Below are positions 6,445-23,531 of a stretch of DNA of 50,783 bases, piece by piece (position 1 is the first letter of the stretch; each line of letters starts with the position of its first letter). The stretch lies in the NCBI GenBank assembly GCA_964639295.1, contig CAZXDT010000001.1:1-50783 (forward strand). The letters are read 5' to 3'. A program made the position numbers and the translations under genes. Source of the stretch: an uncultured Candidatus Saccharibacteria bacterium (GTDB lineage Bacteria; Patescibacteriota; Saccharimonadia; Saccharimonadales; JALRHH01). Below the pieces are notes generated by a model, which was not told the DNA's origin, made no database searches, and was given only the letters and a program-made list of their open reading frames with translations.

Positions 6445-6465
6445 TTATGCTATACTGTATCTCAT

Positions 6466-7125: not shown

Positions 7126-7157
7126 GTAGCTTAAGGACCTTGCTCAACAGATGACTT

Positions 7158-7177
7158 TTTGGTACACTCTACCGGTA
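7158..7177 (+). promoter_or_regulatory. promoter-like block upstream of tRNA-Thr(TGT)
   Basis: TTTGGTACACTCTACCGGT includes the -10-like TACACT at 7163-7168. It is 18/19 identical to 11810-11828 and sits at the same distance from the mature tRNA 5' end. Confidence 0.55.
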
Positions 7178-7194
7178 CTTTAAAACATAAACGT

Positions 7195-7271
7195 GCCACC
7201 TTAGCTCAGCTGGTTAGAGCAGCTGTTTTGTAAACAGCAGGTCGTCGGTTCGAATCCGACAGGTGGCTCCA
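7195..7271 (+). tRNA. tRNA-Thr (anticodon TGT), CCA encoded
   Basis: Hand-folded cloverleaf: acceptor GCCACCT/AGGTGGC, anticodon stem GCTGT/ACAGC, loop TTTGTAA, T-arm GTCGG-TTCGAAT-CCGAC. Confidence 0.9.
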
Positions 7272-7370
7272 ATCTACACTTTGGTATACATTCTTATTGC
7301 GAGAATACCAAAGTGACCATGAGCTTGAGTTCATGGAGGTGTTCATAGCCGTCAGGAGTGGCGGCAATGT

Positions 7371-7455
7371 GCCGGAATCGTCTAGTGGCAATGACAGGAG
7401 ACTGTAAATCTCCCGCCTTTCGGCTTCGTAGGTTCGAGTCCTACTTCCGGCACCA
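7371..7455 (+). tRNA. tRNA-Tyr (anticodon GTA) with a long variable arm, CCA encoded
   Basis: Acceptor GCCGGAA/TTCCGGC, anticodon stem GGAGA/TCTCC, loop CTGTAAA, a long variable arm and T-arm GTAGG-TTCGAGT-CCTAC. Confidence 0.9.
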
Positions 7456-7462
7456 AATTAAG

Positions 7463-7486
7463 AAGTCGACCACAGGTCGGCTTTTT
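7463..7486 (+). terminator. intrinsic terminator after the tRNA-Thr/tRNA-Tyr pair
   Basis: AGTCGACC-ACA-GGTCGGCT (one G-U pair) followed by TTTTT. Confidence 0.75.
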
Positions 7487-7681
7487 AATTTGTTCCTGTA
7501 AGTCTCGAACCGTACAGCCAAAGGCTGAGGTTCAGTCTTCAAAGCCTCGCGCAGGAGTTTACTCCGAGTAAGGCTGCAGAAGTGCACCGTCCTACTTCTA
7601 TGAGAATCTGGAACGTGTTAACAACATTGTAGGTCTTCATAAACAAAAGCATTTAGGTATAATATACGTATATAGCTGGGG

Positions 7682-9976: not shown

Positions 9977-10059
9977 GTATTTTGTTACTGAATATTGAGA
10001 AACAGTTTTATCTGCATGAGATTTGCTTTACACCCGGTATAAGATCAAACTAGGAAGTG

Positions 10060-11781
10060 ATGCATATCAAAATGAGGGAAAATAAATCATTTGTTAACAA
10101 GAAGAAAGTTAGTGCCGTTTTTCTCTTGATCATACTGGCAATTACCGCGGTAGTGTTGCTGTCTGAAAGACAGAACAAATTTAGAGATGTACTGCATGGC
10201 TATGATTGGTCTTATTTATCTGGTGGTAAAGTAACGCACGAAGGTGTACAAGTAAATCCACTCAACCAAAGCATAATTCACCAAGATGGCTCTAAAGCAC
10301 AGCTAAATCCTCCTGTTAATGTACGGGGACCTCACTTAGCTTTTTCTGGTGACTTTCAAGTAAGAACCATAATGCGTGGTGCTGATGACGGGGCATCTCT
10401 TCAGTTCTACGGACGCGTGCCTGTTGTATATGATGAATGGAGGCAAGAGAAACAGAGTTACAGGATAGATGTTTCTAGTAAGCGGGTTGAAACCCGTGTT
10501 TGGGATGGAGACTCGTCAGTCCCTATGGATATACGGAGCTACAACGTGGATCTTAAAGGTGATGTCTTGTTAGATATAAAACGCTCAAAGGGTCTTATAA
10601 GTGTTAGTACCAATGGAAAGATGCTTGGTTCTATGCCAGACCACAACATCTTTGCCGATGGTAATTTGTGGTTTGGCGCAGATGGTAACGATAAAGGTGA
10701 CGGCTGGCTACTTCGTAACTTGGAGGCACGCGCACTTGGCAAAGACACATTGCAAATTGTTGATTCTCCTGCCCTTGGCGTACCCCATAATGATCCAAGT
10801 TTACTGCGTAACATTGCAGATAAGTTACCTCGGAAATTGCCTATAGGAGTAGCTGTCTCGGCCAACCAGTTGTTTACTGATCAACGCTATCAAGACATCG
10901 CAATGAGCCAATTTAGCTTAGTCACACTCGAAAGCAGCCTCAAGGCACAATTTATTCATCCGGCTCCAAATAAATATAGTTTTACTGATGCGGACAACAT
11001 TGTTGACATGGCCACGGCTAATGGTCAGACAGTTCACGGTCATACTTTGGTTTTTGCAAAGTCTAACCCTTCATGGATTACAGATACGCCTGCAGCTGAG
11101 CTACCTAATGTGATGACAGACCATATTACAAATGTTGTAGGTCACTTTAAGGGTCGTATTAACTCATGGGATGTTGTGAATGAACCTTTATCAGAAAAGG
11201 ATGAGGATTACATGGATGGTGGTTTGGGGCTAAGAACTTCTTTCTGGCAGAAAACTATAGGTGAAAGTTATATCGATAAGGCATTTATTGCTGCAAGAGC
11301 AGCAGATCCATCAGCCAAACTGTATCTCAACGACTATGGCATAGAACATACAGACAAGCGGTGGGATGCGATGTTGGCTCTTGTGCAACGCTTAAAGAGC
11401 CGAGGAGTACCAATTGATGGGGTAGGTTTTGAATCACACGTCTATGATACTAAGGACCGTATTGATCTAGCTGTTTTGCAGTCTCATATACAAGCACTGG
11501 CAAATTTAGGGTTGAGCGTAAGGATTTCGGAGATTGATGTTACGGGCAAGGATCCTGGATTCCAAAGTGAACAATATACCGGAGTATTATCGGTGTGTAT
11601 AAAAGAACCAAACTGCACATCTTATACTACTTGGGGAGTATCAGATTTATATGGTTCAACTACTGTAGCTGACAGATATCCATTGCTACTAGGAACAAGT
11701 CTATTGTGGGATAAAGATATGAAGCCAAAACCAGCAGTTGCTGCTCTACAAAAAACGCTTACTATGAGTCTTGCGCAATAA
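10060..11781 (+). CDS. membrane-anchored glycoside hydrolase family 10 (endo-beta-1,4-xylanase-like) with an N-terminal beta-sandwich-like domain
   Basis: GH10 motifs HGHTLVF, WDVVNEP (acid/base Glu), LYLNDYG and ISEIDV (nucleophile Glu). An N-terminal hydrophobic anchor (VSAVFLLIILAITAVVLL) is present. The start could be GTG 10057, ATG 10060 or ATG 10072. Confidence 0.8.
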   Translation: MHIKMRENKSFVNKKKVSAVFLLIILAITAVVLLSERQNKFRDVLHGYDWSYLSGGKVTHEGVQVNPLNQSIIHQDGSKAQLNPPVNVRGPHLAFSGDFQVRTIMRGADDGASLQFYGRVPVVYDEWRQEKQSYRIDVSSKRVETRVWDGDSSVPMDIRSYNVDLKGDVLLDIKRSKGLISVSTNGKMLGSMPDHNIFADGNLWFGADGNDKGDGWLLRNLEARALGKDTLQIVDSPALGVPHNDPSLLRNIADKLPRKLPIGVAVSANQLFTDQRYQDIAMSQFSLVTLESSLKAQFIHPAPNKYSFTDADNIVDMATANGQTVHGHTLVFAKSNPSWITDTPAAELPNVMTDHITNVVGHFKGRINSWDVVNEPLSEKDEDYMDGGLGLRTSFWQKTIGESYIDKAFIAARAADPSAKLYLNDYGIEHTDKRWDAMLALVQRLKSRGVPIDGVGFESHVYDTKDRIDLAVLQSHIQALANLGLSVRISEIDVTGKDPGFQSEQYTGVLSVCIKEPNCTSYTTWGVSDLYGSTTVADRYPLLLGTSLLWDKDMKPKPAVAALQKTLTMSLAQ

Positions 11782-11809
11782 GAGATAACCCTTGGAATCA
11801 TCTCTGTTA

Positions 11810-11829
11810 TTTGGTACAATCTACCGGTT
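11810..11829 (+). promoter_or_regulatory. promoter-like block upstream of tRNA-Thr(GGT)
   Basis: TTTGGTACAATCTACCGGT includes the -10 TACAAT at 11815-11820. It is a near-duplicate of 7158-7176. Confidence 0.55.
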
Positions 11830-11846
11830 ACAAAGCAAACACATAT

Positions 11847-11921
11847 GCCGTCGTAGCTCAGTGGTAGAGCATCGCCATGGTAAGGCGGGGGTCTCGGGTT
11901 CAAGTCCCGACGACGGCTCCA
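11847..11921 (+). tRNA. tRNA-Thr (anticodon GGT), CCA encoded
   Basis: Acceptor GCCGTCG/CGACGGC, D-stem GCTC/GAGC, anticodon loop ATGGTAA, T-arm TCGGG-TTCAAGT-CCCGA. Confidence 0.9.
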
Positions 11922-12060
11922 GTATTGAAACTTCCTCCGTAATCTGTTAAGATTATTTGGATATCACTACGTGATTACGTCATTGTACTCGTAAAACAGA
12001 AGCAAGCTTCGTTTTCCTCCGTGCAATTCGTATAACATTATTATTTAAAGGTATGGAATA

Positions 12061-12267
12061 ATGGCTAAAAAAGGCGATAAGCGCAAGATTGTAGGATTGG
12101 TTTCTGAGGAAAGTGGTGCACGTCACTACTACACCAAGAAGAACACCCAGAATACGCCAGACAAGCTCGAGCTAAAGAAGTATGACCCTATTCTTCGCAA
12201 GCACGTTCTTTACGTTGAGACTAAGAAGAGTCTTGGACGTAACGAAGTAAAAGCTCGCAAGAAGTAG
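12061..12267 (+). CDS. rpmG: 50S ribosomal protein L33 (Cys-less form)
   Basis: YYTKKNTQNTPDKLELKKYDPILRKHVLYVETK matches the L33 core. The positions of the zinc-ribbon CxxC pairs are not Cys here. Confidence 0.9.
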   Translation: MAKKGDKRKIVGLVSEESGARHYYTKKNTQNTPDKLELKKYDPILRKHVLYVETKKSLGRNEVKARKK

Positions 12268-12287
12268 TTTTACGAAAGCTTACATTA

Positions 12288-12310
12288 ACAGCTCCACCGG
12301 GGCTGTTTTT
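12288..12310. terminator. hairpin terminator between convergent rpmG and the GH15 gene
   Basis: ACAGCTCC-ACC-GGGGCTGT (one G-U pair) followed by TTTTT on the + strand. Confidence 0.65.
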
Positions 12311-12327
12311 CTTTGACAAGCTTCTTG

Positions 12328-14262
12328 TCAGCCTAGTTTCATGACGTCTAGGATGGTATTGGCAAGTTCAGCATGGCTCCATACAAGTGGCGACACCGAT
12401 ATGGATGTGCCATCAGTTGGGTTAACTTGCTCTGCTAATACGCCACTTGATGTAGCATGATCCATCGTCCACGTAATGTATTGTCGAGCTTTATCCATAT
12501 TGCCAGTCCTTGCGTAGTACTGTGCCATCCAGAGTGTGGTTACAAACCATGGGTTACCCAGAAAGGTTGGATTTGATTCAAAATAGTGGTCATTTTCATA
12601 TCTTGGAGTTCCACCCGCTGGACTCTTATCGAGAAGAATATTCTCTACCTGGGTAACTGTCCTTTTGAGATTGTCTGTACTTGTGTGGAGACCAAACATC
12701 ATGACACCATACATACTCGATACGTCTAAAGTATTATCAAAGACTAATGAACCATCCTGTTGCAATAAGAATCCTTTACGAAGCAGCTCACGTTCTGGGT
12801 CAAAGAATATGTCAGAGTTACTAAGAATTTTGTTTGCACTACTTGTCCAATTCGTGGCGTCATCCGGGAAGCCAAACTTCTCTGCAAAGTCGCTCGCAAC
12901 AAGAAGTGCTTGATACACAATTGCAACCGTATAGGTGTTGGTTAAAAATTTCTCTTCCCACAGATCGTAACTAGCATGCGGGAGGCCAGTTTGCTCATCC
13001 GTAAATCCTGATAGGAAGTTGGCGGCAGGCTGTATAAGTGTGTCGTACAAGTTGCGCACAAAGTCCTCGTCATGTGAATGTTCATAATATTCACCAAGCA
13101 TGTAGATAATAGATGCAGTCTCATCTTCTTGAATGGGTAGTTCCTTATGATCTCCATGTAGTAATGGGTGCCAAGTGCTACCAATAGCCCTATCAGGCTG
13201 GTATTTGTGCATTAAATAACCACCAGGTGCTAAAACATCTCTACAGAATTCGAAGAAACGTTTAGGCTCTTCACTATAGCCGAGCCTAATTAATGGCCAC
13301 ATTGCAAACGCACCATCTCGTGGCCAAACGTAACTATAATAGTCACGACCGTAGTTATAAATTGATGAATCAGCTGATGCAATCACGCCACCACGGCGAT
13401 CTGTGTGCACTTTAATGATCATGAGAGACTTTTTAAGTGGTTCTAGGAACTCAGCGTCAAGTCCATGAAGTGTGTTTGCTCCCGTTGCAAGCCATTCGTG
13501 CCAGTGTTGACGAACGGCAGCGAGTCGGTTTGCAAGACCCTCTTTTTTGATTACTGCATGGATCTTTTCTGAGTCAAATTGTGAATCAGACGCTATAATC
13601 CAATAATTAATGACATCTGACTGTCCACCTTCGAGTTGAAGCGTATAGCGCATCACGGAATCCACACCACCGTGCTCTACAGCGCTGCCTGACAACTCTC
13701 CATCTTCTGCATCTTTATACGTTCCTTCTTTGCCTTCGATGCCATAGTTACCTACGGCAAACTGATCAAATGTGGTACCATCCTCGCGTTCACCGTAGAT
13801 CAACAGTGAACAGCGGCCTTTATAATCGAGCAAATAGTTATCGTCGGGTACAAAAAGGGCAGTATCTGCACGTCCGCTTCTGGACACTTGGAAAACTTGA
13901 TGTGTGAAAAGTCGGATTTCACGCTGGTTTTCGGCTTGGTTTCTAACGGTGATCCTACGGCAAAATGTATTTGATTCGTGATCTACAAAATCATTGAAAA
14001 GTAGCTCGACTTGCAGTTTGTCTGACTGCATGCGAATGGCGCTTATTAGAGCATCTGCTTCGAAGTTAACAGTTATGTCCCAAGATCCATCGTCAACCCA
14101 TGAAAAAGTGTTATCTACCCATACACCTATCTTGTGATGGACACTTCGTGCGGTGGTGAGGTTATCGAGCCCAACATAAGGGTAGTAAAAGTCGTGAACT
14201 AACCCTTGCTCACTTAAACCAACCGTTAGAGAGCCGTTTCCGAGCATTACGGGGCGTGCCAT
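12328..14262 (-). CDS. glycoside hydrolase family 15 (glucoamylase/glucodextranase-like)
   Basis: YSYVWPRDGAFAMWPL, GVLAEQVNP and PLVWSHAEL are GH15 catalytic-domain motifs. I set the start at ATG 14262-14260, which overlaps the GH57 stop as TAATG. The longer frame to 14310 would overlap the upstream gene by 49 nt. Confidence 0.85.
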   Translation of the reverse strand: MARPVMLGNGSLTVGLSEQGLVHDFYYPYVGLDNLTTARSVHHKIGVWVDNTFSWVDDGSWDITVNFEADALISAIRMQSDKLQVELLFNDFVDHESNTFCRRITVRNQAENQREIRLFTHQVFQVSRSGRADTALFVPDDNYLLDYKGRCSLLIYGEREDGTTFDQFAVGNYGIEGKEGTYKDAEDGELSGSAVEHGGVDSVMRYTLQLEGGQSDVINYWIIASDSQFDSEKIHAVIKKEGLANRLAAVRQHWHEWLATGANTLHGLDAEFLEPLKKSLMIIKVHTDRRGGVIASADSSIYNYGRDYYSYVWPRDGAFAMWPLIRLGYSEEPKRFFEFCRDVLAPGGYLMHKYQPDRAIGSTWHPLLHGDHKELPIQEDETASIIYMLGEYYEHSHDEDFVRNLYDTLIQPAANFLSGFTDEQTGLPHASYDLWEEKFLTNTYTVAIVYQALLVASDFAEKFGFPDDATNWTSSANKILSNSDIFFDPERELLRKGFLLQQDGSLVFDNTLDVSSMYGVMMFGLHTSTDNLKRTVTQVENILLDKSPAGGTPRYENDHYFESNPTFLGNPWFVTTLWMAQYYARTGNMDKARQYITWTMDHATSSGVLAEQVNPTDGTSISVSPLVWSHAELANTILDVMKLG

Positions 14263-15470
14263 TAGATGGTTACACCTTTCTGCGCTAAACGGAACTGCAC
14301 ATCGTGCCAAGCATTCATGAAGTTCATGTAGGCTTCGTACGGTGTTTCGTAAGGGCTAAAGTAGGCATGAATGTCACCGTCGTTAAACCATTTTGTACAC
14401 ATATAGTAAAAATGGTCAGAAGTCGTGAGTTTGCGCCAGTCATCTATTAGCTGTAGGTCGCCTGATTCCATGACTGGCTTTTGGACATCATAGAGTGCTC
14501 GAATAGCTTCTTGTTGCATAGGATTACCGAGCCAGGCTGACAAATCACGTTCAGTATCTGCCCAAGTTGTAGTGTCAGGCGTATCAACCTTATCTACTGG
14601 TTCATTGGCATCAATAACTTCGCTGACGGTCATAAATGTATTACCTTCTGTCTGGAGCCATTGCTCCGGTAAATGGTGCAGGAAGTCAAAGATACCTGAC
14701 TCACTCCACTGGTGTTCGCCAAAGGTTTCATAGTCCATAAACAAGTTAAAGTTAGTTGCGTCAGTAGTGCCATTGAGCCAGTGAGTGAACTTATCAGCAG
14801 TTAATGGCCATTCAGCCCAGTTCCTGTCACCAAATCGGAAAGCGATATCGTCTGATAGCTTGTAGTTCTTCATGAGCAGCTTGATATTCTCTGTGTACGT
14901 TGGACGATAGACAAAGTTCGGGCTACGCCAACCAAGGACTGGATCCCAACCTTCGGCCAAGATACCCTTGTACCCAGCACGATCAGCCCAGTATGCAAGA
15001 TCATTATTATAACTAAGCTCCGTATTACGGAATACTTTAGGTGTCTGTCCAAACAGTTCTTCTACTTTCTCACGGTGCATTCGTACTTGTGCCTCAAACT
15101 CGGCTTGTGAGTAGAAGAAGGCGAGACTATGGTGGTATGTTTCCCCAACTATCTCAACACGACCAGTTGCTGTCAGCTCCTGGAAAGATTTGAGACTAGC
15201 AGGTGACCACTTCTCAAGTTGCTCTAAAACAGTGCCCGTTATAGACAAGCTTAGCTTAAACTCCGGATGCTTTTCTAATAGTTCAAGCAATTTACGATTA
15301 GTAGGGATGTAGGACTTTTCGGCAACCTTGTGAGCAATGCGCTCATTATTGGTGCGGTCGTCATAAGCCGAGTCAAAGTAATTATGGCGGTTGCCGGCAT
15401 CAAAAATAGTATAGTGACCTATTCGGTATGGTTGATGGACGTGCATGTAGAGGACGATTGCCTTACTCAT
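14262..15470 (-). CDS. glycoside hydrolase family 57 (alpha-amylase / alpha-glucan branching enzyme-like)
   Basis: GH57 regions: MHVHQPYR, GRVEIVGETYHH and FMDYETFGEHQW. There is an ATGA overlap with the upstream glycosyltransferase. Confidence 0.85.
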   Translation of the reverse strand: MSKAIVLYMHVHQPYRIGHYTIFDAGNRHNYFDSAYDDRTNNERIAHKVAEKSYIPTNRKLLELLEKHPEFKLSLSITGTVLEQLEKWSPASLKSFQELTATGRVEIVGETYHHSLAFFYSQAEFEAQVRMHREKVEELFGQTPKVFRNTELSYNNDLAYWADRAGYKGILAEGWDPVLGWRSPNFVYRPTYTENIKLLMKNYKLSDDIAFRFGDRNWAEWPLTADKFTHWLNGTTDATNFNLFMDYETFGEHQWSESGIFDFLHHLPEQWLQTEGNTFMTVSEVIDANEPVDKVDTPDTTTWADTERDLSAWLGNPMQQEAIRALYDVQKPVMESGDLQLIDDWRKLTTSDHFYYMCTKWFNDGDIHAYFSPYETPYEAYMNFMNAWHDVQFRLAQKGVTI

Positions 15471-16672
15471 ACTGCTACTGCCTCTGTGTGGTGTTTATAT
15501 AGCTCGAGTAGACGATCAGCTGCTTTGTTCCAACTCAAGCGCTCGTATTCTTTCAATGAGTTGGTGTGCAATTCATCACGCAGCCCGTCATTTTGAACAA
15601 CCGCTGTGATTTGATTGGCCATTTCGTTTATATCCCAATAATCAACCTTCAGACAGTTAGTTAGTACTTCTGATACACCAGACTGTTTACTGATAAGAGC
15701 TGGTGTACCATATCCAATTGCTTCAAATGGGGTCAAACCAAAAGGTTCAGAAATAGAAGGCATAACGAATAGATCGCCAATTGCGTAGGCATCACGCCAA
15801 GTCTTGCCACGCTGGAAGCCTGTAAAAACAACGTTTCTGCCGATGCCAAGCTCTGCAGCCAGTTCTAGTAGCTCACGGTCTTGTTCACCTGAACCTACGA
15901 ACAAAAATATAGTCTTTGGAGAGCGGGCAATGACCTCTTTTGCTGCCCGCAGTAAGTTGGGTAAACCCTTTTGGATAGTCAAACGCCCCACGTTCACGAC
16001 AATTCGATACCCATGTTGCTTCATTTCTGTAAGGTAATTGTAGACATTTCCGGTATCAAGTGGCTGTACCCCGTCTAGGTCGAAACTATTGTGAATAACC
16101 TCAATCTTATCGGCTGGAATCTTGTAGTCAGCAACGATAGCATCTTTGGTCAGCTGGCTTATAGCTATGATCTTATCAGCCAGCATCATAGACATATATT
16201 CAATTTCACGAACCATTGGGTTGCCGTCATCGCCACCAGCTCTATCGCGCTCGATTGAGTGAACGTGGAGTAATAGTGGCTTGTTGGTTTTTTCCTTAGC
16301 TCGCAGGGCAGCACGGAAGGTTAGCCAATCATGGGCATGAATGACATCAAAATCGGCTAGTTCAACGATACGTTCAACCGCTTGCTCATAAATTGCACTT
16401 TGACCAAAGAGGTCTATTGACTCAATATCACCGTTTGTCTTGATGTACTTGAAGCTGTCGTAGGCGATACCGGCTTTGATGACTGCTTCGACATCCTGTG
16501 GGTGTGCAGCATTAATCCGCATAAATTCAACATCATGTTCGGCCGTGTAGGGTAGGACGAACTCAATATCGGCGCCTTTTTTGGAGAGAGCTTTACAAAG
16601 CTGGTAACATGCAACACCAAGCCCACCACTGTTATGAGGTGGTAATTCCCACCCCAACATGAGTACCTTCAT
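15467..16672 (-). CDS. GT4/GT5-type glycosyltransferase, glycogen(alpha-glucan) synthase-like
   Basis: N-terminus MKVLMLGWELPPHNSGGLGVACYQL and C-terminal EPFGLTPFEAIGYGTP (E-x7-E region). It is the first gene of the GT-GH57-GH15 operon. Confidence 0.75.
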   Translation of the reverse strand: MKVLMLGWELPPHNSGGLGVACYQLCKALSKKGADIEFVLPYTAEHDVEFMRINAAHPQDVEAVIKAGIAYDSFKYIKTNGDIESIDLFGQSAIYEQAVERIVELADFDVIHAHDWLTFRAALRAKEKTNKPLLLHVHSIERDRAGGDDGNPMVREIEYMSMMLADKIIAISQLTKDAIVADYKIPADKIEVIHNSFDLDGVQPLDTGNVYNYLTEMKQHGYRIVVNVGRLTIQKGLPNLLRAAKEVIARSPKTIFLFVGSGEQDRELLELAAELGIGRNVVFTGFQRGKTWRDAYAIGDLFVMPSISEPFGLTPFEAIGYGTPALISKQSGVSEVLTNCLKVDYWDINEMANQITAVVQNDGLRDELHTNSLKEYERLSWNKAADRLLELYKHHTEAVAV

Positions 16673-16794: not shown

Positions 16795-17205
16795 ATGAGT
16801 TCACAACAAAAAATTGTCATCGTAGAAGATGACAAAATGCTCGCTGAAATCTACCAGACCTTGCTTTCTTCAAGTGGTTTTACCGCGCTTGTAGCTAACG
16901 ATGGACGCAGTGGTGCTGATCTGGTCAAGCAAGAACAGCCTGACCTTGTGCTACTGGATATTATGCTACCTGAACTTTCTGGCGATATGGTGCTTTACGA
17001 AATACGCTCGGACGAACGCACTCGTGACACAAAAGTCATTATGCTGACAAACATTAGTGAGACTGAGGCTCCAGAGGGCCTTGATAAGCTCGGATTCTCT
17101 CGTTATATCGTAAAGGCTAATCTTGTGAGTAATGAGCTGCCGGATATTTGTCGCGCAGTTATGGCTGAAACACCTGATCAAAGCGCCGAAGCAGTCGCTC
17201 TCTAA
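16795..17205 (+). CDS. single-domain response regulator (CheY-like receiver only)
   Basis: IVIVEDDKML...DLVLLDIMLPELSG...YIVKAN gives the acidic pocket, the phospho-Asp and the conserved Lys. There is no output domain. TATGCT lies 6 nt before the ATG and there is no SD. Confidence 0.85.
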   Translation: MSSQQKIVIVEDDKMLAEIYQTLLSSSGFTALVANDGRSGADLVKQEQPDLVLLDIMLPELSGDMVLYEIRSDERTRDTKVIMLTNISETEAPEGLDKLGFSRYIVKANLVSNELPDICRAVMAETPDQSAEAVAL

Positions 17206-17209
17206 CACG

Positions 17210-18457
17210 CTAAGCTGCGGCTGGCTGCACTGATAATTGTTTGAGAAGGTATTTACTAACGCCGATGACGCGTTCAAGTCCGTGAACGTGATCAAGATGT
17301 TGTGTTGATAATCCCCCTGAGAGCCTATGCTCATCAGTGCCAATATAGTTTAGAAACTCAATAGATAAACCTTGGGGTTCTATAGTATCTCTTCGAAGTG
17401 TTTCCACTAGACGTCTTACAAGCACCTTTGCCTGAGCGGCGTCTAGAGTTAATTCATGACTAGCAAATAGTTCGATACATGCTTCTTCTAGCTGTATTAG
17501 TTTATCAATTTCTAAAACTGAGATATCATCACTCAGTTCTAGGAATAGAGGTGTAAGTTCTGCTACAAATTCACCCAAAACCTCTGCCGTTTCTACTAGA
17601 TACGGCTCGTTTGGGACTGTAATAGTATCTTCAGTCGCTTCCAGCCCGCCAGGTGACTGGATTTCTGTAAACCAAGTTTGTATGACTTCTGCGAAGCGAG
17701 TGGCTTGGGTGGTTTCTTCTGTCTCCAGGCTAACAGTTAATGGGGTCTCAACTGTTGCATCCACGGGTGATGACTCATCTTGAATACTTATATCTAATGG
17801 AGTATCTAACTCCTCTGCAGTCAACTCCAGTAATGTATCTTCTGTTTCAACTAATGGCTGTATCTCGGTCACTTTTGCTGGAAGAATACTAGTGATCTCT
17901 AATTCGGGAGTTGAGATTGAACTAATTTCATTGACTTTGGTTGGCTCTGTAGCGGACGTTTCTATAGCCTTTTTAGCAGGTGGTTGGTCTATCGTAGGTG
18001 CAGAAGCCTCGGTTAACTCATAGAATGTACGTTCTTGTTGCTGGAATTCTTCTATGTGATTCGATTTCGGTAGCATAACTCTGAGGATGTCATTTTCTAT
18101 GACCAATAGCTCTGCTTCTTTGATTTCAAAAATCTGCTGAACTTTCTTATCTGATACTGTCGGCTCGACCCGGATGTCTTTAGTCAGGACGGCATCTATG
18201 TTATTAGCCTGTTCTGTCTCAATGTGGATGATACTCACTGCATGATTCATAGCAAATTCACCGATCTTACCAGCAAAGGGACATATTCTTGATAATTCCT
18301 TCATATCCAAATGGCCACCTGCTTCGCGAAGGTATTCGACAGCCATTGCAGGTAAGCCAGCAACATCAAACACAATATTCTCACCATTGAAGGTCATTGA
18401 TGCTGTTTCTCCAATCTCAAGTTGAGACTGGTCTATCCCATGTGCCGTTGTGCTCAT
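17210..18457 (-). CDS. hypothetical acidic protein (415 aa) with a Glu/Thr/Pro-rich central region
   Basis: A long ORF with no recognised motif. The central ~150 aa are low-complexity and acidic. Confidence 0.6.
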   Translation of the reverse strand: MSTTAHGIDQSQLEIGETASMTFNGENIVFDVAGLPAMAVEYLREAGGHLDMKELSRICPFAGKIGEFAMNHAVSIIHIETEQANNIDAVLTKDIRVEPTVSDKKVQQIFEIKEAELLVIENDILRVMLPKSNHIEEFQQQERTFYELTEASAPTIDQPPAKKAIETSATEPTKVNEISSISTPELEITSILPAKVTEIQPLVETEDTLLELTAEELDTPLDISIQDESSPVDATVETPLTVSLETEETTQATRFAEVIQTWFTEIQSPGGLEATEDTITVPNEPYLVETAEVLGEFVAELTPLFLELSDDISVLEIDKLIQLEEACIELFASHELTLDAAQAKVLVRRLVETLRRDTIEPQGLSIEFLNYIGTDEHRLSGGLSTQHLDHVHGLERVIGVSKYLLKQLSVQPAAA

Positions 18458-18496: not shown

Positions 18497-19105
18497 TTAT
18501 CGGGATTGGAGAGCGTCGAGTGCTACTGCCATAGCGGCATAGGTGCGCCAGTCAATGGCTGAATAGGCAGCATCGTCAACTGAGAGTACATAGTGGTCAC
18601 GGAGAAGAGTCGTTTTTTGGTATTTACCAACTATCTCGCCAGTTTTAATGTCTACAAAGTCGAAGTGGTATTTGAATAACATCATTATGATCTCTGCTAG
18701 CTCACCAACTATAGGCACTGCACCTATAAATCGACGAAATATGGCAAGCGGAACGCTACTTTCCTTTACAAGAAGTACCGGGTCACCGTTTGTATCAAGG
18801 ATATTCCAGGTACTGACGAGTAGGGATTTGCCAAATACTTTGCTAAATCCGCCAATCTTCTGACCGTCTGGTGCCTCAACGAAGTAGCGCCCATGTACAT
18901 CGAGCACTTTCTCAGCACGGAATCCAAACACTTCCTCAGTCTTGCTTTCATCACCGTAAAAGGTGACTTTTTCTTTGAAAGCCAATCTCTTCTGCTGTGC
19001 AAACGCAACAGTATCTGTCTTATCACCGTTATTGTCAGTTTTATATACAATGTATTTGTTTACAAAAGCAGTTATTTTTTGCTCAACAATAAGTCGTGGA
19101 ATCAT
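18497..19105 (-). CDS. LURP-one-related / scramblase-like (tubby C-terminal-like) protein, tentative
   Basis: A repetitive beta-strand pattern (KYIVYKTDNNGD..VAFAQQKRLAFKEKVTFYGDE...FGFRAEKVLDVHGRYFVEAPDGQKIG...WNILDTNGDPVLLVKE) is reminiscent of the LOR/YxjI family. The call is by eye only. Confidence 0.4.
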   Translation of the reverse strand: MIPRLIVEQKITAFVNKYIVYKTDNNGDKTDTVAFAQQKRLAFKEKVTFYGDESKTEEVFGFRAEKVLDVHGRYFVEAPDGQKIGGFSKVFGKSLLVSTWNILDTNGDPVLLVKESSVPLAIFRRFIGAVPIVGELAEIIMMLFKYHFDFVDIKTGEIVGKYQKTTLLRDHYVLSVDDAAYSAIDWRTYAAMAVALDALQSR

Positions 19106-19217
19106 GAATGTAGTTTACCATCAGTTTGGTTATCAGAGTAAGGAGTGTAGCTTCATTACTGTTAATTAAGGTACTAGCTATTGACTAATTCAACATAATA
19201 CTGTATAGTAATAATTC

Positions 19218-19646
19218 ATGAAAGACAGTAGAAATAGTGAAGGGGTTATCTCGTACCCAATTTCGACACTTCTTCGTGGCGAAGAAGGACCATGGGTACA
19301 TACCCTTACAACCTTTAGTTACGATAAATCAGATCCATTTGCTGTCAGCACTACTTTTGGTAATGAAACTGATGCGCCAGCAACCTGGACTTGGGCAAGG
19401 GAGTTACTATACAAAGGAGTTGATGAACCGACAGGCGAAGCTGATGTCATAGTCTACCCAGGGAAGCTTGATGATGTTCATGGCCATACTGCAATACACT
19501 TTTCTGGCCCTGAAGGAGAAGTAACCTTATATGCTCGAACAGCACCAGTCGCAGAATTTATAGCACGAACATTGTCACTCGTACCGGTAGAACGCGAATC
19601 AGAAAATCTTGATATTGACACAGTGCTTGCCCAAATCCTTAGCTAA
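19218..19646 (+). CDS. SsgA/SsgB-like protein (SALP family)
   Basis: Whole-length motif agreement with Streptomyces SsgB as I remember it: YDKSDPFAVSTTF, WTWARELLYKG, PTGEADVIVYP, SGPEGE, FIARTLSLVPVERESENLDIDTVLAQIL. Confidence 0.8.
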   Translation: MKDSRNSEGVISYPISTLLRGEEGPWVHTLTTFSYDKSDPFAVSTTFGNETDAPATWTWARELLYKGVDEPTGEADVIVYPGKLDDVHGHTAIHFSGPEGEVTLYARTAPVAEFIARTLSLVPVERESENLDIDTVLAQILS

Positions 19647-19731
19647 TATTAGTTGAACAGCTGCAATCGCAAAATTGTCATGAACATCATAGTATGGTAT
19701 AATAACGATAATCATAAAGGATTGAAGTTAC

Positions 19732-21219
19732 ATGCGTGAGTTTCGCTTAGTAGGTCTTACTGTTTTTTATACGTTTCTTACCATTCTCTTAGCATTGCTA
19801 GGCATAGGCAGTATTACTAAGCTGCAGCAATCACAGTACGAGCTTGCAACAAGTTCAACGACCAAGGCTCCTCTACAAAGTAAAAGTACACTTTCTAGTA
19901 CCGCCAACACAACTGCCACAGCATCGGAAGTAACACCTGCGCCAACTAGCTTAACGTTGGCCGCAAGCGCAACCAATGTTCGGCTACAAGACAAAAGCAC
20001 CCTCTCTGGCGTGTTATCAACAACTGACATCCTCGGATCATCAGTTCCGGTACCTAACAAGCCTGTTGATGTACAGAAGAGTACCAGTAGTGGTGTTTGG
20101 ACGACTGTTGTAAGTGGGGTTACTGACGCTAACGGTGGTTATTCTTTGCCAGTGACTATTGCAAACACATCAGCTGACTATCGTGTTGTATTTGCAGGAG
20201 ATGCTGAATATGCAGCAAGTCAGAGTGCAAGTGTAAAAATTACTGGGTTTGTAGCAACTACCAGGATATATAGGACAGGCCCAACAAGCGTAACTGCAGA
20301 AACCTCTACGACATATGGTGCCCATTTTGAAGTCAATGATTCACGTGTCACTAGTAATCCACCCATTGCTGGGGCAAAAGTTGATGTATATCGTAAGGAT
20401 GCATTCGGGGGAAACTGGAAATTAGTCTCTACAATCGCAACAGCTAGCAATGGAAATATTTCATGGCGTGCCACAGTCAGCACGCCAACGTACTGGAAGT
20501 TGGTCGGTCATAGTACAGCTACGTCAACTTCTGCAAACTCAACAGTTACCAAGCCTACAGTTGTGCCTATAGGCAAGGTGTATAAGTTACCTAGTTCTGC
20601 CCCTAAGCCTACTGCATTGGCTCCTCAACCAGCAGCAGTCGGGACTGGTGCACACCCAGCTGTAAGCAGTATCCCAGACTCAGTCTGGAAAAACATGGTA
20701 GGAAAGTCCTGGCACTCAGGTTGCCCAGTAGGCCGAAGTAAGCTGGCATACATGACAGTCAATTATTGGGGATTCGATGGGTACCGTCACCGTGGCCAGA
20801 TGGTATTTAGGTCTAGCCATAAGAGTGAGTTCGTAGCTGCATTCACACGACTATATAACGATCACATCCCGCTGCATGGCATGTACCTAGTAGATAAGTT
20901 TGGCTATAGCTCACGAACACATGGTGCAGACGACTATGCTTCAATGCAACATGATAATACCTCAGCCTTCAATTGCCGCTGGGTAGATGGCAGACCAGGC
21001 GTAATGTCACCACACTCCTACGGAACGGCTGTCGATATCAACCCTTATGAAAACCCATATCACTCAGCAAAAGGCTGGACGCCTAATTACTGGTGGAGAG
21101 CACACAACTTCCCACCATACACCTGGCGAAGTCATAGTTCACCTGCCGTCCAAGACATGCTCCAGTCCGGCTTCCACTGGACATATGGCAACGAAGACGC
21201 CCAGCACTTCGACACGTAG
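19732..21219 (+). CDS. membrane-anchored M15-family peptidoglycan peptidase with a Ser/Thr-rich linker and two Ig-like repeats
   Basis: An N-terminal TM helix is present. The C-terminal domain carries SPHSYGTAVDINPYENPY (H-x2-G-x-A-x-D zinc motif) and EDAQHFD. Two ~95-aa beta-rich repeats precede it. Confidence 0.75.
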   Translation: MREFRLVGLTVFYTFLTILLALLGIGSITKLQQSQYELATSSTTKAPLQSKSTLSSTANTTATASEVTPAPTSLTLAASATNVRLQDKSTLSGVLSTTDILGSSVPVPNKPVDVQKSTSSGVWTTVVSGVTDANGGYSLPVTIANTSADYRVVFAGDAEYAASQSASVKITGFVATTRIYRTGPTSVTAETSTTYGAHFEVNDSRVTSNPPIAGAKVDVYRKDAFGGNWKLVSTIATASNGNISWRATVSTPTYWKLVGHSTATSTSANSTVTKPTVVPIGKVYKLPSSAPKPTALAPQPAAVGTGAHPAVSSIPDSVWKNMVGKSWHSGCPVGRSKLAYMTVNYWGFDGYRHRGQMVFRSSHKSEFVAAFTRLYNDHIPLHGMYLVDKFGYSSRTHGADDYASMQHDNTSAFNCRWVDGRPGVMSPHSYGTAVDINPYENPYHSAKGWTPNYWWRAHNFPPYTWRSHSSPAVQDMLQSGFHWTYGNEDAQHFDT

Positions 21220-21271: not shown

Positions 21272-21347
21272 TGGCAGGGGTGCCAGGATTTGAACCCGAG
21301 CTTCAGGTTTTGGAGACCTACGTGCTAACCACTGACACTACACCCCT
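21272..21347 (-). tRNA. tRNA-Trp (anticodon CCA), CCA end encoded
   Basis: The reverse complement folds as acceptor AGGGGTG/CACCCCT, D-stem GTGT/GCAC, anticodon stem TAGGT/ACCTG, loop CTCCAAA and T-loop TTCAAAT. Confidence 0.85.
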
Positions 21348-21431: not shown

Positions 21432-22742
21432 CTAACTTTTGGTTTGTGGGTCTACCAACATTCCAAATAGCTCTACGAATATCTGGTCATCAACCCTGTG
21501 ACTAGCAGCTTGTTTGGCGGTTGCCTTAGGGTTAGTTGTCACAACGAGGATTCGTTTGAGCGCCTCGGCTGCGACACCACGAACATTTGGCTGTAATAGT
21601 GCTCTACGTTCAGCTTCTGGTTTTTGTGCATCGCGGCCTTTTTGTACATAGTTACTGAAATTAACCAGATGTGTTAGGGAAAGTCCGTCAGGGCGACGGG
21701 CATCCGGAAATATCTCACGTTGTATGATCGCAATATTAGTACTGTGTCGAGTGGGGTCTTCAAGAAAACTATCAAGTAGATGTTTGACGAATAGCTTCCC
21801 AGTAATTAGGGGTATTTTTTCAGTAGGTTGTGTGTCTTCAATATTATTTTTGAGTCTGGCTAACTTAAGCTTTGCAAAGTGTTTATTAGCGAGTAAGTGG
21901 GGATTGTTGAGTATCGATGATTTTGTGTCTGGCAATAGGAGACCGTGTTCCTCGAAGGGCTGTATGAACTTAGCTATCAACTGTAACTTATCATTGAATG
22001 GAGACAGTACTAAAAGTCTCTTACTTAGACCTTTTTCCAAGGCGTGGATAAGTCGCTTTGACTCATCAAAATCCCTGGATTCGAGAAGCTTTTTTTGCAA
22101 CTCTTGAGCATCAGGGGTAAGTCGCGAGCCATTACCATTTAACAGAAACCTTGATGACAACTCTTTAGCCATAGCTACAGAAGTAGTATTGAGTTGAACT
22201 TTGTAGTCGCCACACCATGCTGTAGTACTCTCTGGCGAGTTTAGGTAATGAGCATTAGTTGCCTGATACCCTTCAGAAAGCGTTATATTAAGTAGCTGCC
22301 ATAAGCTTGTGTTTTTGCGGGATACTTTTGCAAGCTCCCGAATCACTGTTGGTGCATATGCGGGCTTAGATTGGAAAATAGAGCCTGGATATAGCGCATT
22401 AAGTTCTTGCCTTGAGCCAGTGTGCGTGAAGTCACTTGTCATAGAGCTAAGTGTGAAACGTTTACCGCCCCCAAGTGATTCACGAACTATTGCTTCTGCG
22501 GTAAGAGGTTTGTTCGTAAGATCTTGTACGTTTGCGTCCGGGTCAGCATCAACAGTAACCATGACGAGATCAGGCAGACTTTGCGATTCTATGTCTGTTC
22601 GTGTTTGTAATAATACGAAGTTAGGTATACTCCCGATGCCTGTAGTATTGTCGATAAATGCGTGTTTTGCTGTTTGCAGTAATAGTGAAAAATGCTCAGC
22701 ACGCAAAGCTTCATTGTTTGGGGCCTGTGACTCTGACATCAC
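21432..22742 (-). CDS. hypothetical protein (436 aa)
   Basis: A long ORF divergent from the kinase/DUF45 pair. No motif recognised. Confidence 0.6.
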   Translation of the reverse strand: MMSESQAPNNEALRAEHFSLLLQTAKHAFIDNTTGIGSIPNFVLLQTRTDIESQSLPDLVMVTVDADPDANVQDLTNKPLTAEAIVRESLGGGKRFTLSSMTSDFTHTGSRQELNALYPGSIFQSKPAYAPTVIRELAKVSRKNTSLWQLLNITLSEGYQATNAHYLNSPESTTAWCGDYKVQLNTTSVAMAKELSSRFLLNGNGSRLTPDAQELQKKLLESRDFDESKRLIHALEKGLSKRLLVLSPFNDKLQLIAKFIQPFEEHGLLLPDTKSSILNNPHLLANKHFAKLKLARLKNNIEDTQPTEKIPLITGKLFVKHLLDSFLEDPTRHSTNIAIIQREIFPDARRPDGLSLTHLVNFSNYVQKGRDAQKPEAERRALLQPNVRGVAAEALKRILVVTTNPKATAKQAASHRVDDQIFVELFGMLVDPQTKS

Positions 22743-22868
22743 AATATTACAGCACTTTAGACACTCTTTTACAAGTGTTGTGACTATACAGATTCAAGCA
22801 CTGGAACATTTTGATCATATACCGGGCTTTTGCAAAATCATGAAAATTGTTATAGTTTACTGGTATAT

Positions 22869-23531
22869 ATGAGTAAATTGGCTTTGTCTCGACCCACCCT
22901 CATCCTCCTGTATGGTTTTCCTGGAGCAGGTAAGACCTATTTGGCGCGCCAATTGTGTGAAGACATTCAGGCGGCACATGTACAGAGTGACCGTATTCGT
23001 TATGAATTGTTTGAGCAACCTCGTTACGACCGTCAAGAAAACGAGATTGTTGACCATCTGATGCAATACATGACCGAGGAGTTTCTGAACGCAGGTATCA
23101 GTGTGGTGTATGACATTAATGCTATGCGCCTTAGTCAACGACGTGAACTCCGTGATATGGCGCGTAAAAACAAAGTAGATACCATACTTGTATGGCTTCA
23201 AGTTGATGCAGAAAGTGCATTTGCCCGAGTAGCCAAGCGTGACCGCCGCAAAATGGATGATAAATACACACCTTCTATGGATCGTAGTTCATTTGAACAA
23301 CTTGCCAGTGGCATGCAAAACCCAAGTCCCTCAGAGGAATACATGGTTATTAGCGGCAAGCACACCTATCAGACACAGCGAAGCGCAATCCTCAAGAAGC
23401 TATATGACATGGGCCTGACTGTCCCTGGTGATACTGGTGGCCCTAAAATCGTCAAACCTGGTCTTGTAAACTTGGTTCCAAACATGGGCGGCCGTGTTGA
23501 CCCTACTCGTCGCAATATTAATATTCGTTAA
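22869..23531 (+). CDS. P-loop kinase, AAA_33/zeta-toxin-like
   Basis: Walker A LLYGFPGAGKTYLARQL followed by VQSDRIRYELF (Asp-containing substrate motif) and a Walker B-like ILVWLQVD. The start is ATG 22869, and an extended -10 (TGTTATAGT, 22848-22856) lies just upstream. Confidence 0.65.
   Translation: MSKLALSRPTLILLYGFPGAGKTYLARQLCEDIQAAHVQSDRIRYELFEQPRYDRQENEIVDHLMQYMTEEFLNAGISVVYDINAMRLSQRRELRDMARKNKVDTILVWLQVDAESAFARVAKRDRRKMDDKYTPSMDRSSFEQLASGMQNPSPSEEYMVISGKHTYQTQRSAILKKLYDMGLTVPGDTGGPKIVKPGLVNLVPNMGGRVDPTRRNINIR

Follow-up and report, generated by a model that had tools for sequence, protein, structure and literature searches.

The window analysed here is a stretch of 50,783 nucleotides from an uncultured Saccharibacterium. 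It carries, at 19218..19646 on the forward strand, an open reading frame (ATG to TAA) for a 142-aa protein of the SsgA-like protein (SALP) family. The gene lies in a small islet between a response regulator (RR) gene and a kinase gene, which comprises the following features:

16795..17205, forward strand: orphan response regulator consisting of a receiver domain only (Pfam Response_reg), conserved left anchor of the islet
17210..18457, reverse strand: p415, acidic 415-aa orphan protein with no Pfam or NCBIfam family
18497..19105, reverse strand: p202, divergent from the SALP gene, from a family with saccharibacterial members at other loci
19181..19209, forward strand: predicted σ70-type promoter of the SALP gene, TTGACT-17 nt-TATAGT (consensus scan, 10 of 12 matches)
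19218..19646, forward strand: SALP gene with an SsgB-type 142-aa product (open reading frame, Pfam SsgA, PDB SsgB matches, AF2 model, Foldseek)
19675..19703, forward strand: predicted own promoter of the M15 peptidase gene, TTGTCA-17-TATAAT (consensus scan, 11 of 12 matches)
19732..21219, forward strand: gene directly 3' of the SALP gene, whose product is anchored in the membrane, has a Ser/Thr-rich region and carries a Peptidase_M15_4 domain at its C-terminus (VanY-like D-Ala-D-Ala carboxypeptidase; Pfam PF13539, 33.4 bits)
21272..21347, reverse strand: tRNA-Trp(CCA), conserved landmark 3' of the SALP gene within the islet (ARAGORN, Rfam)
21432..22742, reverse strand: p436, orphan protein with no family assigned
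22830..23531, forward strand: AAA_33/KTI12-type kinase, conserved right anchor of the islet (orthologues in relatives)

The SALP gene product consists of one SsgA domain (residues 31–127) and a C-terminal helix. It matched the Pfam profile PF04686 (SsgA) with 85.5 bits (E 2.4e-24; curated cut-off 25 bits) over positions 3–98 of the 98 in the profile, and a phmmer search of PDB sequences returned the SsgB proteins of T. fusca (3cm1, E 2.8e-19) and S. coelicolor (6slc, E 1.4e-16). The motif blocks by which the first-pass annotation had recognized an SsgB-like protein are all present in the translation: FSYDKSDPFAVSTTF, WTWARELLYKG, PTGEADVIVYP, SGPEGE and, at the C-terminus, FIARTLSLVPVERESENLDIDTVLAQILS. 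In an alignment of 70 SALP sequences, all eight invariant columns are kept (P40, W57, R61, G67, G73, D76, P81 and E127), as are 12 of the 15 near-invariant ones, the exceptions being the substitutions G75A and G125E and a Y at position 80, where the consensus has W. Identity to the best 150 family matches of an exhaustive search was 31–47%. The sole NCBIfam match was the SsgD equivalog NF052496, and its 73.7 bits are far under the cut-off of 185, which rules out an SsgD orthologue; NCBIfam gave no match at equivalog level to any named Streptomyces paralogue. SsgA, SsgR or further SALP paralogues were found neither in the window nor in the syntenic loci. The protein has no signal peptide or recognizable secretion signal, and the gene sequence found no match in any RNA run.

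The AF2 model of the protein (pLDDT 91.3, pTM 0.83) bore out the expected likeness to the SsgB crystal structures: the best eight Foldseek matches were all SsgB entries (3cm1, 6slc and 6suj; E 3e-12 to 2e-9, TM 0.81–0.87), the next match had E > 1e-3, and whirly proteins were absent from the best 50. The SsgB fold, a β-sheet core with three helices, has been described as ‘whirly-like’ and resembles ssDNA- or guide-RNA-binding whirly proteins (PMC3814722). The HMM match, the invariant residues and the predicted fold leave hardly any doubt that the reading frame encodes a genuine SALP, and its product is modelled as a small protein of the cytoplasm that adopts the whirly-like fold of SsgB. In S. 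coelicolor SsgB (ScSsgB), V115, G118 and E120 form a latch of the α2-α3 loop with R55, and the R55-E120 pair fixes the angle of the last helix (PMC8061694). The counterparts of this pair, R61 and E127, are both kept in the window protein, and so is V122. The near-invariant G118 is replaced by E125; the residue is G in all three other saccharibacterial copies described below. In Streptomyces SsgB, G118V results in misplaced septa, L96P in ScSsgB weakens the SsgB-SsgB and SsgB-SsgA interactions, and SsgB in solution is mainly a monomer (PMC8061694). A mapped FtsZ-binding surface of SsgB was not reported in the literature searched.

The SsgB proteins of T. fusca (3CM1) and S. coelicolor (6SLC/6SUJ), the archetypal SALPs that recruit FtsZ, are likewise single-domain proteins of about 140 aa. 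According to structural alignments, the window copy is 30–34% identical to them; relative to ScSsgB, it carries Y80 for W74, T103 for L96, F41 for Y35 and E125 for G118. Its source is also a different one, a Saccharibacterium and not an actinomycete. The Streptomyces proteins SsgD, SsgA and SsgC-G share the Pfam family with it.

We regard it as practically certain that the SALP is encoded by a Saccharibacterium living in groundwater. The first-pass annotation had taken the genome to be of the CPR/Saccharibacteria type and not actinobacterial; in agreement with this, the DnaB protein of the window is 75–83% identical to those of Saccharimonadales MAGs and the GC content is about 44–45%, staying within 42–48% throughout. 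The SALP gene itself (GC 0.443 vs a window mean of 0.449; GC3 0.294) ranks 17th among the 48 window genes in codon usage. When three groundwater runs were assembled independently, the region came out contiguous and evenly covered. Runs X4 and X5, which by k-mer share had each appeared to hold a relative of about 95%, yielded no diverged allele for dN/dS: X4 proved to contain this very strain at low coverage, and from X5 short fragments alone were obtained.

The −10 element TATAGT (19204–19209) lies 8 nt from the ATG with no Shine-Dalgarno sequence, just as described in the first-pass annotation. A near-consensus −35 element, TTGACT (19181–19186), located 17 nt upstream of the −10 element, was not noted there. 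The short distance to the ATG and the missing Shine-Dalgarno sequence suggest that the SALP mRNA is probably leaderless. A Shine-Dalgarno-like motif is found for just 16 of the 48 window genes; a leaderless promoter of this kind is thus the usual style of the genome and does not mark the SALP gene as foreign. Full amelioration (GC 44%, GC3 29%) together with this native promoter argues against contamination as well as against a recent transfer.

SALPs are textbook examples of actinomycete-specific developmental proteins and serve as taxonomic markers. The confinement to Actinobacteria given in the first-pass annotation is indeed stated in the literature: SALPs, defined as small single-domain proteins of 120–150 aa with 30–50% mutual identity, are said to occur exclusively in actinomycetes and only in morphologically complex ones (PMC2440963, PMC3814722). 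None was reported outside Actinobacteria in the literature searched. This stated distribution is broken by the window genome and by three more Saccharibacteria, and the occurrence outside actinomycetes is no argument against membership of the family in molecular terms. In the exhaustive homologue search (1477 matches), all named matches and all those examined in context, except these four, were actinobacterial. The best named matches (38–42% identity) were from Nocardioidaceae/Propionibacteriales, namely P0006 of Marmoricola, P0009 of Nocardioides and a protein of the Propionibacteriales MAG L098. A word-indexed search with the window SALP alone returned only the self-match; the closest relative, P0244, had been clustered with the query itself at 50% and surfaced solely in the alignment-seeded search. 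SALP pattern scans of 185,579 GTDB species representatives detected none in Saccharibacteria and two actinobacterial loci at most, and those of JGI metagenomes and IMG/VR gave no match. Plasmids also carry SALP genes: 62 such actinobacterial plasmids were found, of which 18 are mobilizable. A phage vector was considered and rejected, as the sole INPHARED match (MT838510.1), although entered as a phage, is a piece of actinobacterial DNA with 70% GC.

A comparison with sister genomes, which the first-pass annotation had proposed as a check, revealed SALP genes at the same locus in three further Saccharibacteria (P0003 in L096, P0002 in L097 and P0244 in L225). The four loci share the order GH15, GH57, GT and RR to the left of the SALP gene and tRNA-Trp, AAA kinase, YgjP, HisK, GT2, SecE and NusG to its right. 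The arrangement RR ... SALP(+) ... tRNA-Trp(−) is identical in each genome open to checking, the tRNA gene being located at 10631–10705 in L096 and 11687–11761 in L225. Orthologues of the RR (74–77% identical) precede the islet in all three relatives, and those of the AAA kinase (76–81%) flank it in L096 and L225. The flanking proteins are 52–97% identical, typically about 80%, whereas the four SALPs share 34–51% identity with each other and 35–44% with actinobacterial SALPs; the SALP is the fastest-diverging of the genes common to the locus. All four reading frames are intact, of family-typical length and with every invariant residue kept, and all four have Y80, G89 and T103, derived residues which are rare in other SALPs. 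Each gene has a predicted TTGAC[T/A/C]-17-[T/C]ATA[G/A]T promoter 6–9 nt 5' of its start codon. In the best NJ tree the four SALPs form a clade of moderate support at most, with a bootstrap of 78% for three of them and 47% for all four, and their nearest neighbours are metagenome proteins; long-branch attraction may be behind this clustering. No SALP was found within 7 kb downstream of the RR in L182, whose slot contains an ISXO2-type transposase, or in the part of the slot sequenced in L183, where the contig ends inside the gene of a 48% identical homologue of the M15 peptidase. A metagenome scan with the single RR protein recovered four orthologous slots, and a GTDB scan with the RR alignment gave, among the matches listed, only paralogous two-component pairs. 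The SALP gene is an accessory gene which evolves much faster than its neighbours.

The content of the islet is different in every genome, no second islet gene accompanies the SALP gene in all four genomes, and a family assignment is lacking for nearly all islet genes. No homologue of p415 is present in the islets of L096, L097 and L225 and none of p436 in the other islets; L096 and L225 have an F420-oxidoreductase-like gene and a membrane protein gene in place of the latter. The p202 protein has 12 saccharibacterial homologues (56–66% identity), none of them encoded beside a SALP or RR gene, and one in Nocardioides dubius (38%). These homologues were dropped as guides to sister loci because their genes are located elsewhere in the respective genomes, and they are therefore uninformative on the SALP slot.

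The SALP genes of the four Saccharibacteria probably go back to one old transfer from Actinobacteria, a direction indicated by the actinobacterial nature of all other matches that are named or were seen in context. Cultured Saccharibacteria are obligate epibionts of Actinobacteria (PMC12102498), and the ancestor of a small lineage within Saccharimonadales would have taken up the gene once from an actinobacterium. The gene would then have acquired the base composition of the recipient and its usual leaderless σ70 promoter, stayed at one site, a small hypervariable islet between the orphan RR and the tRNA-Trp gene, in at least four genomes, and been retained as a fast-evolving accessory gene. 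The suggestion that the gene was host-derived needs refining in this respect: the acquisition would be old, ameliorated and common to a small lineage rather than recent. In the Saccharibacterium, an SsgB-like SALP would mark a position on the envelope, recruiting FtsZ to it or bundling FtsZ there, possibly along with cell-wall enzymes, and would thereby place the septum. We consider such an endogenous role in division or the cell wall only tentatively, at somewhat less than an even chance. It is favoured by the intact reading frame, the lack of a signal peptide, the native promoter and the fold core kept in four diverged genomes. Against it, the accessory and patchy presence is unlike that of core division machinery, the low identity of 34–51% is more readily explained by relaxed constraint, or by adaptation to an external partner that varies, than by binding to FtsZ, which is conserved, and E125 occupies the position of ScSsgB G118, where G118V misplaces septa. 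The whole explanation, an old transfer followed by an SsgB-like role inside the epibiont, is the one we prefer, and it comes close to an even chance without quite reaching it.

Alternatively, the SALP might be a host-directed effector, delivered into the actinobacterial host by, e.g., the Patescibacteria T4SS or another contact-dependent route, which we consider unlikely. It would mimic the host SsgB/SALP network or compete with it, and mislocalized FtsZ or blocked septation would benefit the epibiont. The T4SS of Saccharibacteria is needed for epibiotic growth and is devoid of conjugation components (PMC12102498). An accessory gene in a hypervariable islet which diverges faster than its neighbours shows the pattern typical of host-interaction genes, and the clade-specific T103 occupies the position of ScSsgB L96, where L96P weakens interactions. 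SsgB is genus-specific in sequence, perhaps by co-evolution with its partners (PMC2440963, PMC3814722), and epibionts of different host genera would therefore be expected to hold very different copies. The secreted M15 cell-wall peptidase encoded next to the SALP in the window would suit this role; its gene is, however, unlinked to the SALP gene in the other three genomes. The window protein also lacks any recognizable secretion signal, the literature searched shows no protein translocation from Saccharibacteria to the host and several known hosts of the cultured strains fall in genera described as having no SALP (PMC3814722). That the protein is a mimic stolen from the hosts and sent back to seize control of where FtsZ is placed, so that host division is stalled or redirected during feeding by the epibiont, is rather doubtful, although a copy tuned to each host genus would account for the extreme SALP divergence at a conserved locus.

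A similarly unlikely reading is that the fold was kept and the role in division changed or lost, the gene being a decaying passenger or serving another cytoplasmic use, such as nucleic-acid binding. Rapid divergence, patchy presence and the substitution at the G118 position in the window copy are consistent with it, as are the likeness drawn between SsgB and the nucleic-acid-binding whirly proteins (PMC3814722) and the single SALPs of non-sporulating actinomycetes, which have no established function (PMC2440963). On the other hand, the four reading frames are intact with their invariant residues, the model of the window copy is confident, the strong predicted promoter is conserved and no whirly protein was among the best 50 Foldseek matches. 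Useless genes are usually lost from small genomes, which also counts against a passenger.

Repeated acquisition, with the tRNA-Trp slot as an integration hot spot for different actinobacterial SALPs, is improbable. The mutual identity of the four SALPs is about as low as that to actinobacterial SALPs, the islet content varies per genome, a transposase is present in the L182 slot, and SALP genes reside on plasmids. Nevertheless, orientation, relative position and promoter architecture are alike wherever they could be checked, all four proteins share Y80, G89 and T103 and cluster in the best tree, all four genes are equally ameliorated (loci of 43–48% GC), and no mobile-element genes adjoin the SALP gene in the four loci. 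An artefact (an actinobacterial contaminant, a chimeric assembly or an actinobacterial genome) can be practically dismissed, as no evidence favouring it was found and as the uniform GC content of the window, the SALP GC3 of 29%, the placement of DnaB in Saccharimonadales and the recurrence of the junctions both in the independent assemblies of three runs at even depth and in three unrelated metagenomes all speak against it.

This SALP can be set beside systems already described. Streptomyces SsgB is near-invariant, with at most one residue difference within the genus (PMC3814722), a trait not shared by the saccharibacterial SALPs with their 34–51% identity among neighbours of about 80%. Like Nocardioides, Marmoricola, Kineococcus and Acidothermus, the Saccharibacteria apparently have one SALP per genome and no spore chains; in contrast to the window gene, the single SALPs of these simple actinomycetes are encoded by high-GC genes (68.5% GC in L098) on actinobacterial chromosomes. 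The T4SS of Patescibacteria, which is of the monoderm (Firmicutes/Actinobacteria) type and was acquired across phyla (PMC12102498), is a comparable case of a monoderm/actinobacterial gene fixed in an epibiont chromosome. It is widespread and essential, whereas the SALP is accessory and present in few genomes.

A small, old and domesticated SALP clade in Saccharibacteria breaks the actinomycete-only rule for this family. It represents a probable case of gene flow from the phylum of the actinobacterial hosts to an epibiont lineage, in which a division regulator and not a metabolic gene was passed on. We know of no settled mechanism of division-site placement in ultra-small CPR bacteria, and the SALP offers an entry to septum placement in these cells or else to tampering with host division. 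As highly diverged natural variants of SsgB, these proteins could also help to map the surfaces relevant to FtsZ recruitment.

The ORF of 142 amino acids, running from ATG to TAA, is present as the first-pass annotation described it, and all the SsgB motifs quoted there were found in its translation. Its membership of the SsgA family was confirmed by HMM search: the protein (P0001) matches Pfam PF04686 with 85.5 bits (E 2.4e-24; cut-off 25 bits) over profile positions 3-98 of 98. Among all PDB chains searched with phmmer, the sole match was SsgB (Thermobifida fusca 3cm1, E 2.8e-19; Streptomyces coelicolor 6slc/6suj, E 1.4e-16), and these alignments reach the end of the protein. An alignment of 70 SsgA-like proteins (SALPs) showed that all eight invariant residues (P40, W57, R61, G67, G73, D76, P81 and E127) are kept. 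The same alignment was the input for an AlphaFold2 model (mean pLDDT 91.3, pTM 0.83). The suggested comparison with the SsgB structure gave a clear answer for this predicted model: the best eight Foldseek matches in the PDB were all SsgB chains (E 3e-12 to 2e-9; model TM 0.81-0.87, normalised to target), and the ninth had an E above 1e-3. The only NCBIfam match, the SsgD equivalog, was sub-threshold (73.7 bits vs cut-off 185). The protein is therefore a SALP, SsgB-like in size and shape, but the orthologue of no named Streptomyces paralogue; it has no signal peptide and is, by the model, a folded cytoplasmic protein of SsgB type. When positions analysed in S. coelicolor SsgB (PMC8061694) were transferred via the phmmer PDB alignment, the residue pair R55 and E120, belonging to the latch that fixes the last helix, corresponded to R61 and E127 and was kept, as were W51 (W57), D70 (D76), V115 (V122), P116 (P123) and L97 (L104). 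The changed positions are Y35 (F41), W74 (Y80), L96 (T103), P117 (V124) and G118 (E125).

The gene lies in an islet between two conserved anchors:

16795..17205 (+), orphan response regulator, left anchor
18497-19105 (-), gene of 202 aa, no family assignment
19218-19646 (+), SALP gene
19732-21219 (+), membrane-anchored protein with a long Ser/Thr-rich region and a C-terminal Peptidase_M15_4 domain (VanY-like)
22830..23531 (+), AAA_33 kinase, right anchor

Three other Saccharibacteria contigs carry a SALP: L096 (47.8 kb, 44% GC; P0003), L225 (62.7 kb, 48% GC; P0244) and L097 (P0002). As to whether sister genomes have it at the same locus, it lies between the response regulator and an AAA_33-type kinase in L096 and L225, and L097 ends before the kinase. 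The gene order of L096 is that of the window from the pseudouridine synthase through the Kelch protein of about 1200 aa, the order in L225 is again the same, and that in L097 is glycosyltransferase, response regulator and SALP. The flanking response regulators are 74-77% and the kinases 76-81% identical to those of the window. A tRNA-Trp is found downstream of the SALP gene, on the opposite strand, wherever the sequence extends far enough (window, L096 and L225). The remaining content varies: three orphan genes and the M15 peptidase in the window; a 148-aa orphan, an F420-oxidoreductase-like gene and a membrane protein in L096; LytR-CpsA-Psr, a HIT-like protein and several orphans in L225, where MscS sits between the glycosyltransferase and the response regulator, just outside the anchors; and a Nudix-like gene before the contig end in L097.

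Four more orthologous slots were found in JGI metagenomes. Two are too short to judge, L180 (response regulator 90%; short remaining sequence without a clear ORF) and L181 (88%; a 180-aa membrane protein, then the contig end). There was no SALP within 7 kb after the response regulator of L182 (69%), where an ISXO2-type transposase and a zinc-finger repeat protein are found, nor in L183 (73%) between the response regulator and an M15 peptidase homologue, which follows a membrane protein and in which the contig ends. Since the islet contents vary and these two slots showed no SALP, the islet is hypervariable and the SALP gene in it accessory. The islet of L182 downstream of the response regulator (5600-12596), with its transposase of 299 aa, shows that mobile DNA enters the slot; the zinc-finger protein there has 818 aa and eight DUF4379 treble-clef repeats. 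The M15_4 protein of the window recurs at 48% identity in L183 (about 835-1519). Another contig from run X1 matches the 3' part of its gene on both strands with many differences, so that the same sample contains either a divergent copy of it or an inverted duplication.

The −10 box TATAGT proposed at 19204-19209, 8 nt upstream of the ATG and without an intervening Shine-Dalgarno (SD) sequence, was borne out, and a consensus scan placed a −35 element TTGACT, separated from the −10 box by 17 nt, at 19181-19186 (10/12 matches for both elements). All four saccharibacterial SALP genes have this layout and lack an SD (TTGACA, 17 nt, TATAAT and 6 nt to the ATG in L096; TTGACC, 17 nt, TATAGT and 9 nt in L097; TTGACT, 17 nt, CATAAT and 8 nt to the second ATG in L225). 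The predicted promoter of the SALP gene is strong and native. An SD-like motif precedes only 16 of the 48 window genes, and boxes resembling TATAAT are frequent 5-10 nt 5' of the start codons (e.g. at 3639, 6466, 24262, 37916(-), 37978, 46554 and 48042), so that leaderless transcripts seem to be common in this genome. The arrangement at the SALP gene is its normal style.

In every comparison the SALP was the most diverged shared gene. Its identity is 43% between the window and L096 (flanking proteins 62-97%), 51% between the window and L225 (61-85%), 38% between the window and L097 (77-85%) and 37% between L096 and L225 (core flanking proteins 52-97%). In contrast, SsgB hardly varies within an actinomycete genus and shows 40-50% identity from one genus to another (PMC3814722); relative to their own genomes, the saccharibacterial SALPs thus change faster than SsgB does in actinobacteria. 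The GC content of the gene (0.443) is near the mean of the 48 window genes (0.449), its GC3 (0.294) is the lowest of them (mean 0.408) and its codon-usage likelihood ranks 17th. As it matches the genome composition, and a much higher GC3 would be expected of an actinobacterial gene, the SALP gene is ameliorated and its transfer is old.

The SALP has been retained for long in several small genomes. By analogy with SsgB, it would act within the epibiont as SsgB does in actinomycetes, marking an envelope site, recruiting or bundling FtsZ and perhaps also recruiting cell-wall enzymes. We give this role somewhat less than an even chance, since its patchy presence and fast divergence count against it. 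The main rival, a mimic directed at the host, is unlikely in our estimate. It would fit the life of Saccharibacteria on Actinobacteria and their type IV secretion system, which is essential for epibiotic growth and devoid of conjugation parts (PMC12102498). SsgB is also thought to co-evolve tightly with a partner (PMC2440963), in which case great differences would be expected among copies directed at different host genera. However, the SALP has no secretion signal, and the literature searched shows no delivery of proteins into hosts by Saccharibacteria. As a lesser rival to the SsgB-like role, the long-retained gene might have another function or be slowly decaying, which we likewise consider doubtful.

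Exhaustive searching of 1.84 billion cluster representatives with HMMER yielded 1477 SALP matches at E <=1e-3, none of them, besides the query, above 47% identity. The best two, P0002 (39% identity) and P0003 (42%), have an amino-acid composition of low-GC style and lie on Saccharibacteria-type contigs; P0244 surfaced in an alignment-seeded search. Every named match is actinobacterial (Marmoricola, Nocardioides, Streptomyces, Kitasatospora, Actinocatenispora). The other contexts examined also proved actinobacterial, namely one MAG each of Propionibacteriales and Actinomycetota and loci with 64-70% GC. Organism or context was inspected for a part of the 1477 matches, which may include more non-actinobacterial SALPs beyond the four. 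Many named actinobacterial SALPs occur as paralogue families. From more than 1000 matches, all named ones actinobacterial, against four in one narrow lineage, it follows that the SALP moved from Actinobacteria into Saccharibacteria. SALP genes are carried by 62 actinobacterial plasmids (18 mobilizable), and mobile copies are therefore present in the donor phylum. Searches of INPHARED and IMG/VR revealed no SALP copy on a phage or viral contig. MT838510.1, filed as 'UNVERIFIED: Bacteriophage sp.' from human faeces, was rejected as a phage-borne case: it is a 70% GC fragment with long high-GC ORFs, an ordinary actinobacterial SALP and no obvious phage features.

In a neighbour-joining tree of 271 SALPs (139 columns), the four saccharibacterial proteins form one clade (47% bootstrap), within which P0001 groups with P0244 (66%) and both with P0002 (78%). 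Y80, G89 and T103 occur in all four and each in <10% of other SALPs (70% of which have W at position 80); three of the four share W26, W59, A92 and Y105, each likewise in <10% of others. The clade, the shared derived residues and the shared position suggest a single acquisition by the common ancestor of the four genomes. Repeated acquisition, which concerns the origin and is compatible with the functional readings, finds an opening in the only moderate clade support; we think it quite improbable. The best named SALP matches come from Nocardioidaceae. The neighbouring 202-aa gene has 12 saccharibacterial homologues (56-66% identity), placed elsewhere in those genomes (loci within L083-L095), and one (38%) in the isolate genome of Nocardioides dubius JCM 13008 (L094); it may be a second gene common to Saccharibacteria and Nocardioidaceae.

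The view that the genome is not actinobacterial was upheld. Its DnaB is 75-83% identical to DnaB of about 15 MAGs, vs about 56% to other Patescibacteria and 50% to other phyla. Almost all of the 15 or so MAGs carry the label Saccharibacteria, Saccharimonadales or Saccharimonadia; the title of three is simply "bacterium". The sequence derives from groundwater metagenomes and has 42-48% GC along its full length. The SALP gene and both junctions were recovered in independent assemblies of three runs (L081, L082), with even read depth across the region; these data together rule out contamination, chimerism and an actinobacterial genome, and an artefact is extremely improbable.

From their translations, we take other window genes to be rpoA, rplQ, rplM, rpsI, secE, nusG, rplK, rplA, rplJ, rplL, dnaX and dnaB. 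A 574-aa protein at 10057-11781 (+) combines a 260-aa N-terminal region without a family and a GH10 xylanase domain (278 bits), and adjoins a GH15, GH57 and glycogen-synthase-like cluster (12328-16672); the glycan-handling gene set looks unusually rich for such a small-genome organism. The 1235-aa Kelch-repeat protein (27997-31704 (-)), with an N-terminal membrane anchor and conserved beside nusG in L096 (17898-20432), may be a surface protein. Two extended enzymes lie in the thyA, folA, tmk neighbourhood, one with a dCMP deaminase domain after about 180 residues without a family (40102-41064 (+)), the other with about 400 such residues behind a thymidylate kinase domain (41619-43196 (+)).

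Published accounts describe SALPs as exclusive to actinomycetes (PMC2440963, PMC3814722), and a full-text literature search found no relevant paper on SsgB or SsgA in Saccharibacteria or Patescibacteria. The family itself is already known; what is surprising is where this SALP is located, how it is retained and how it evolves in Saccharibacteria.
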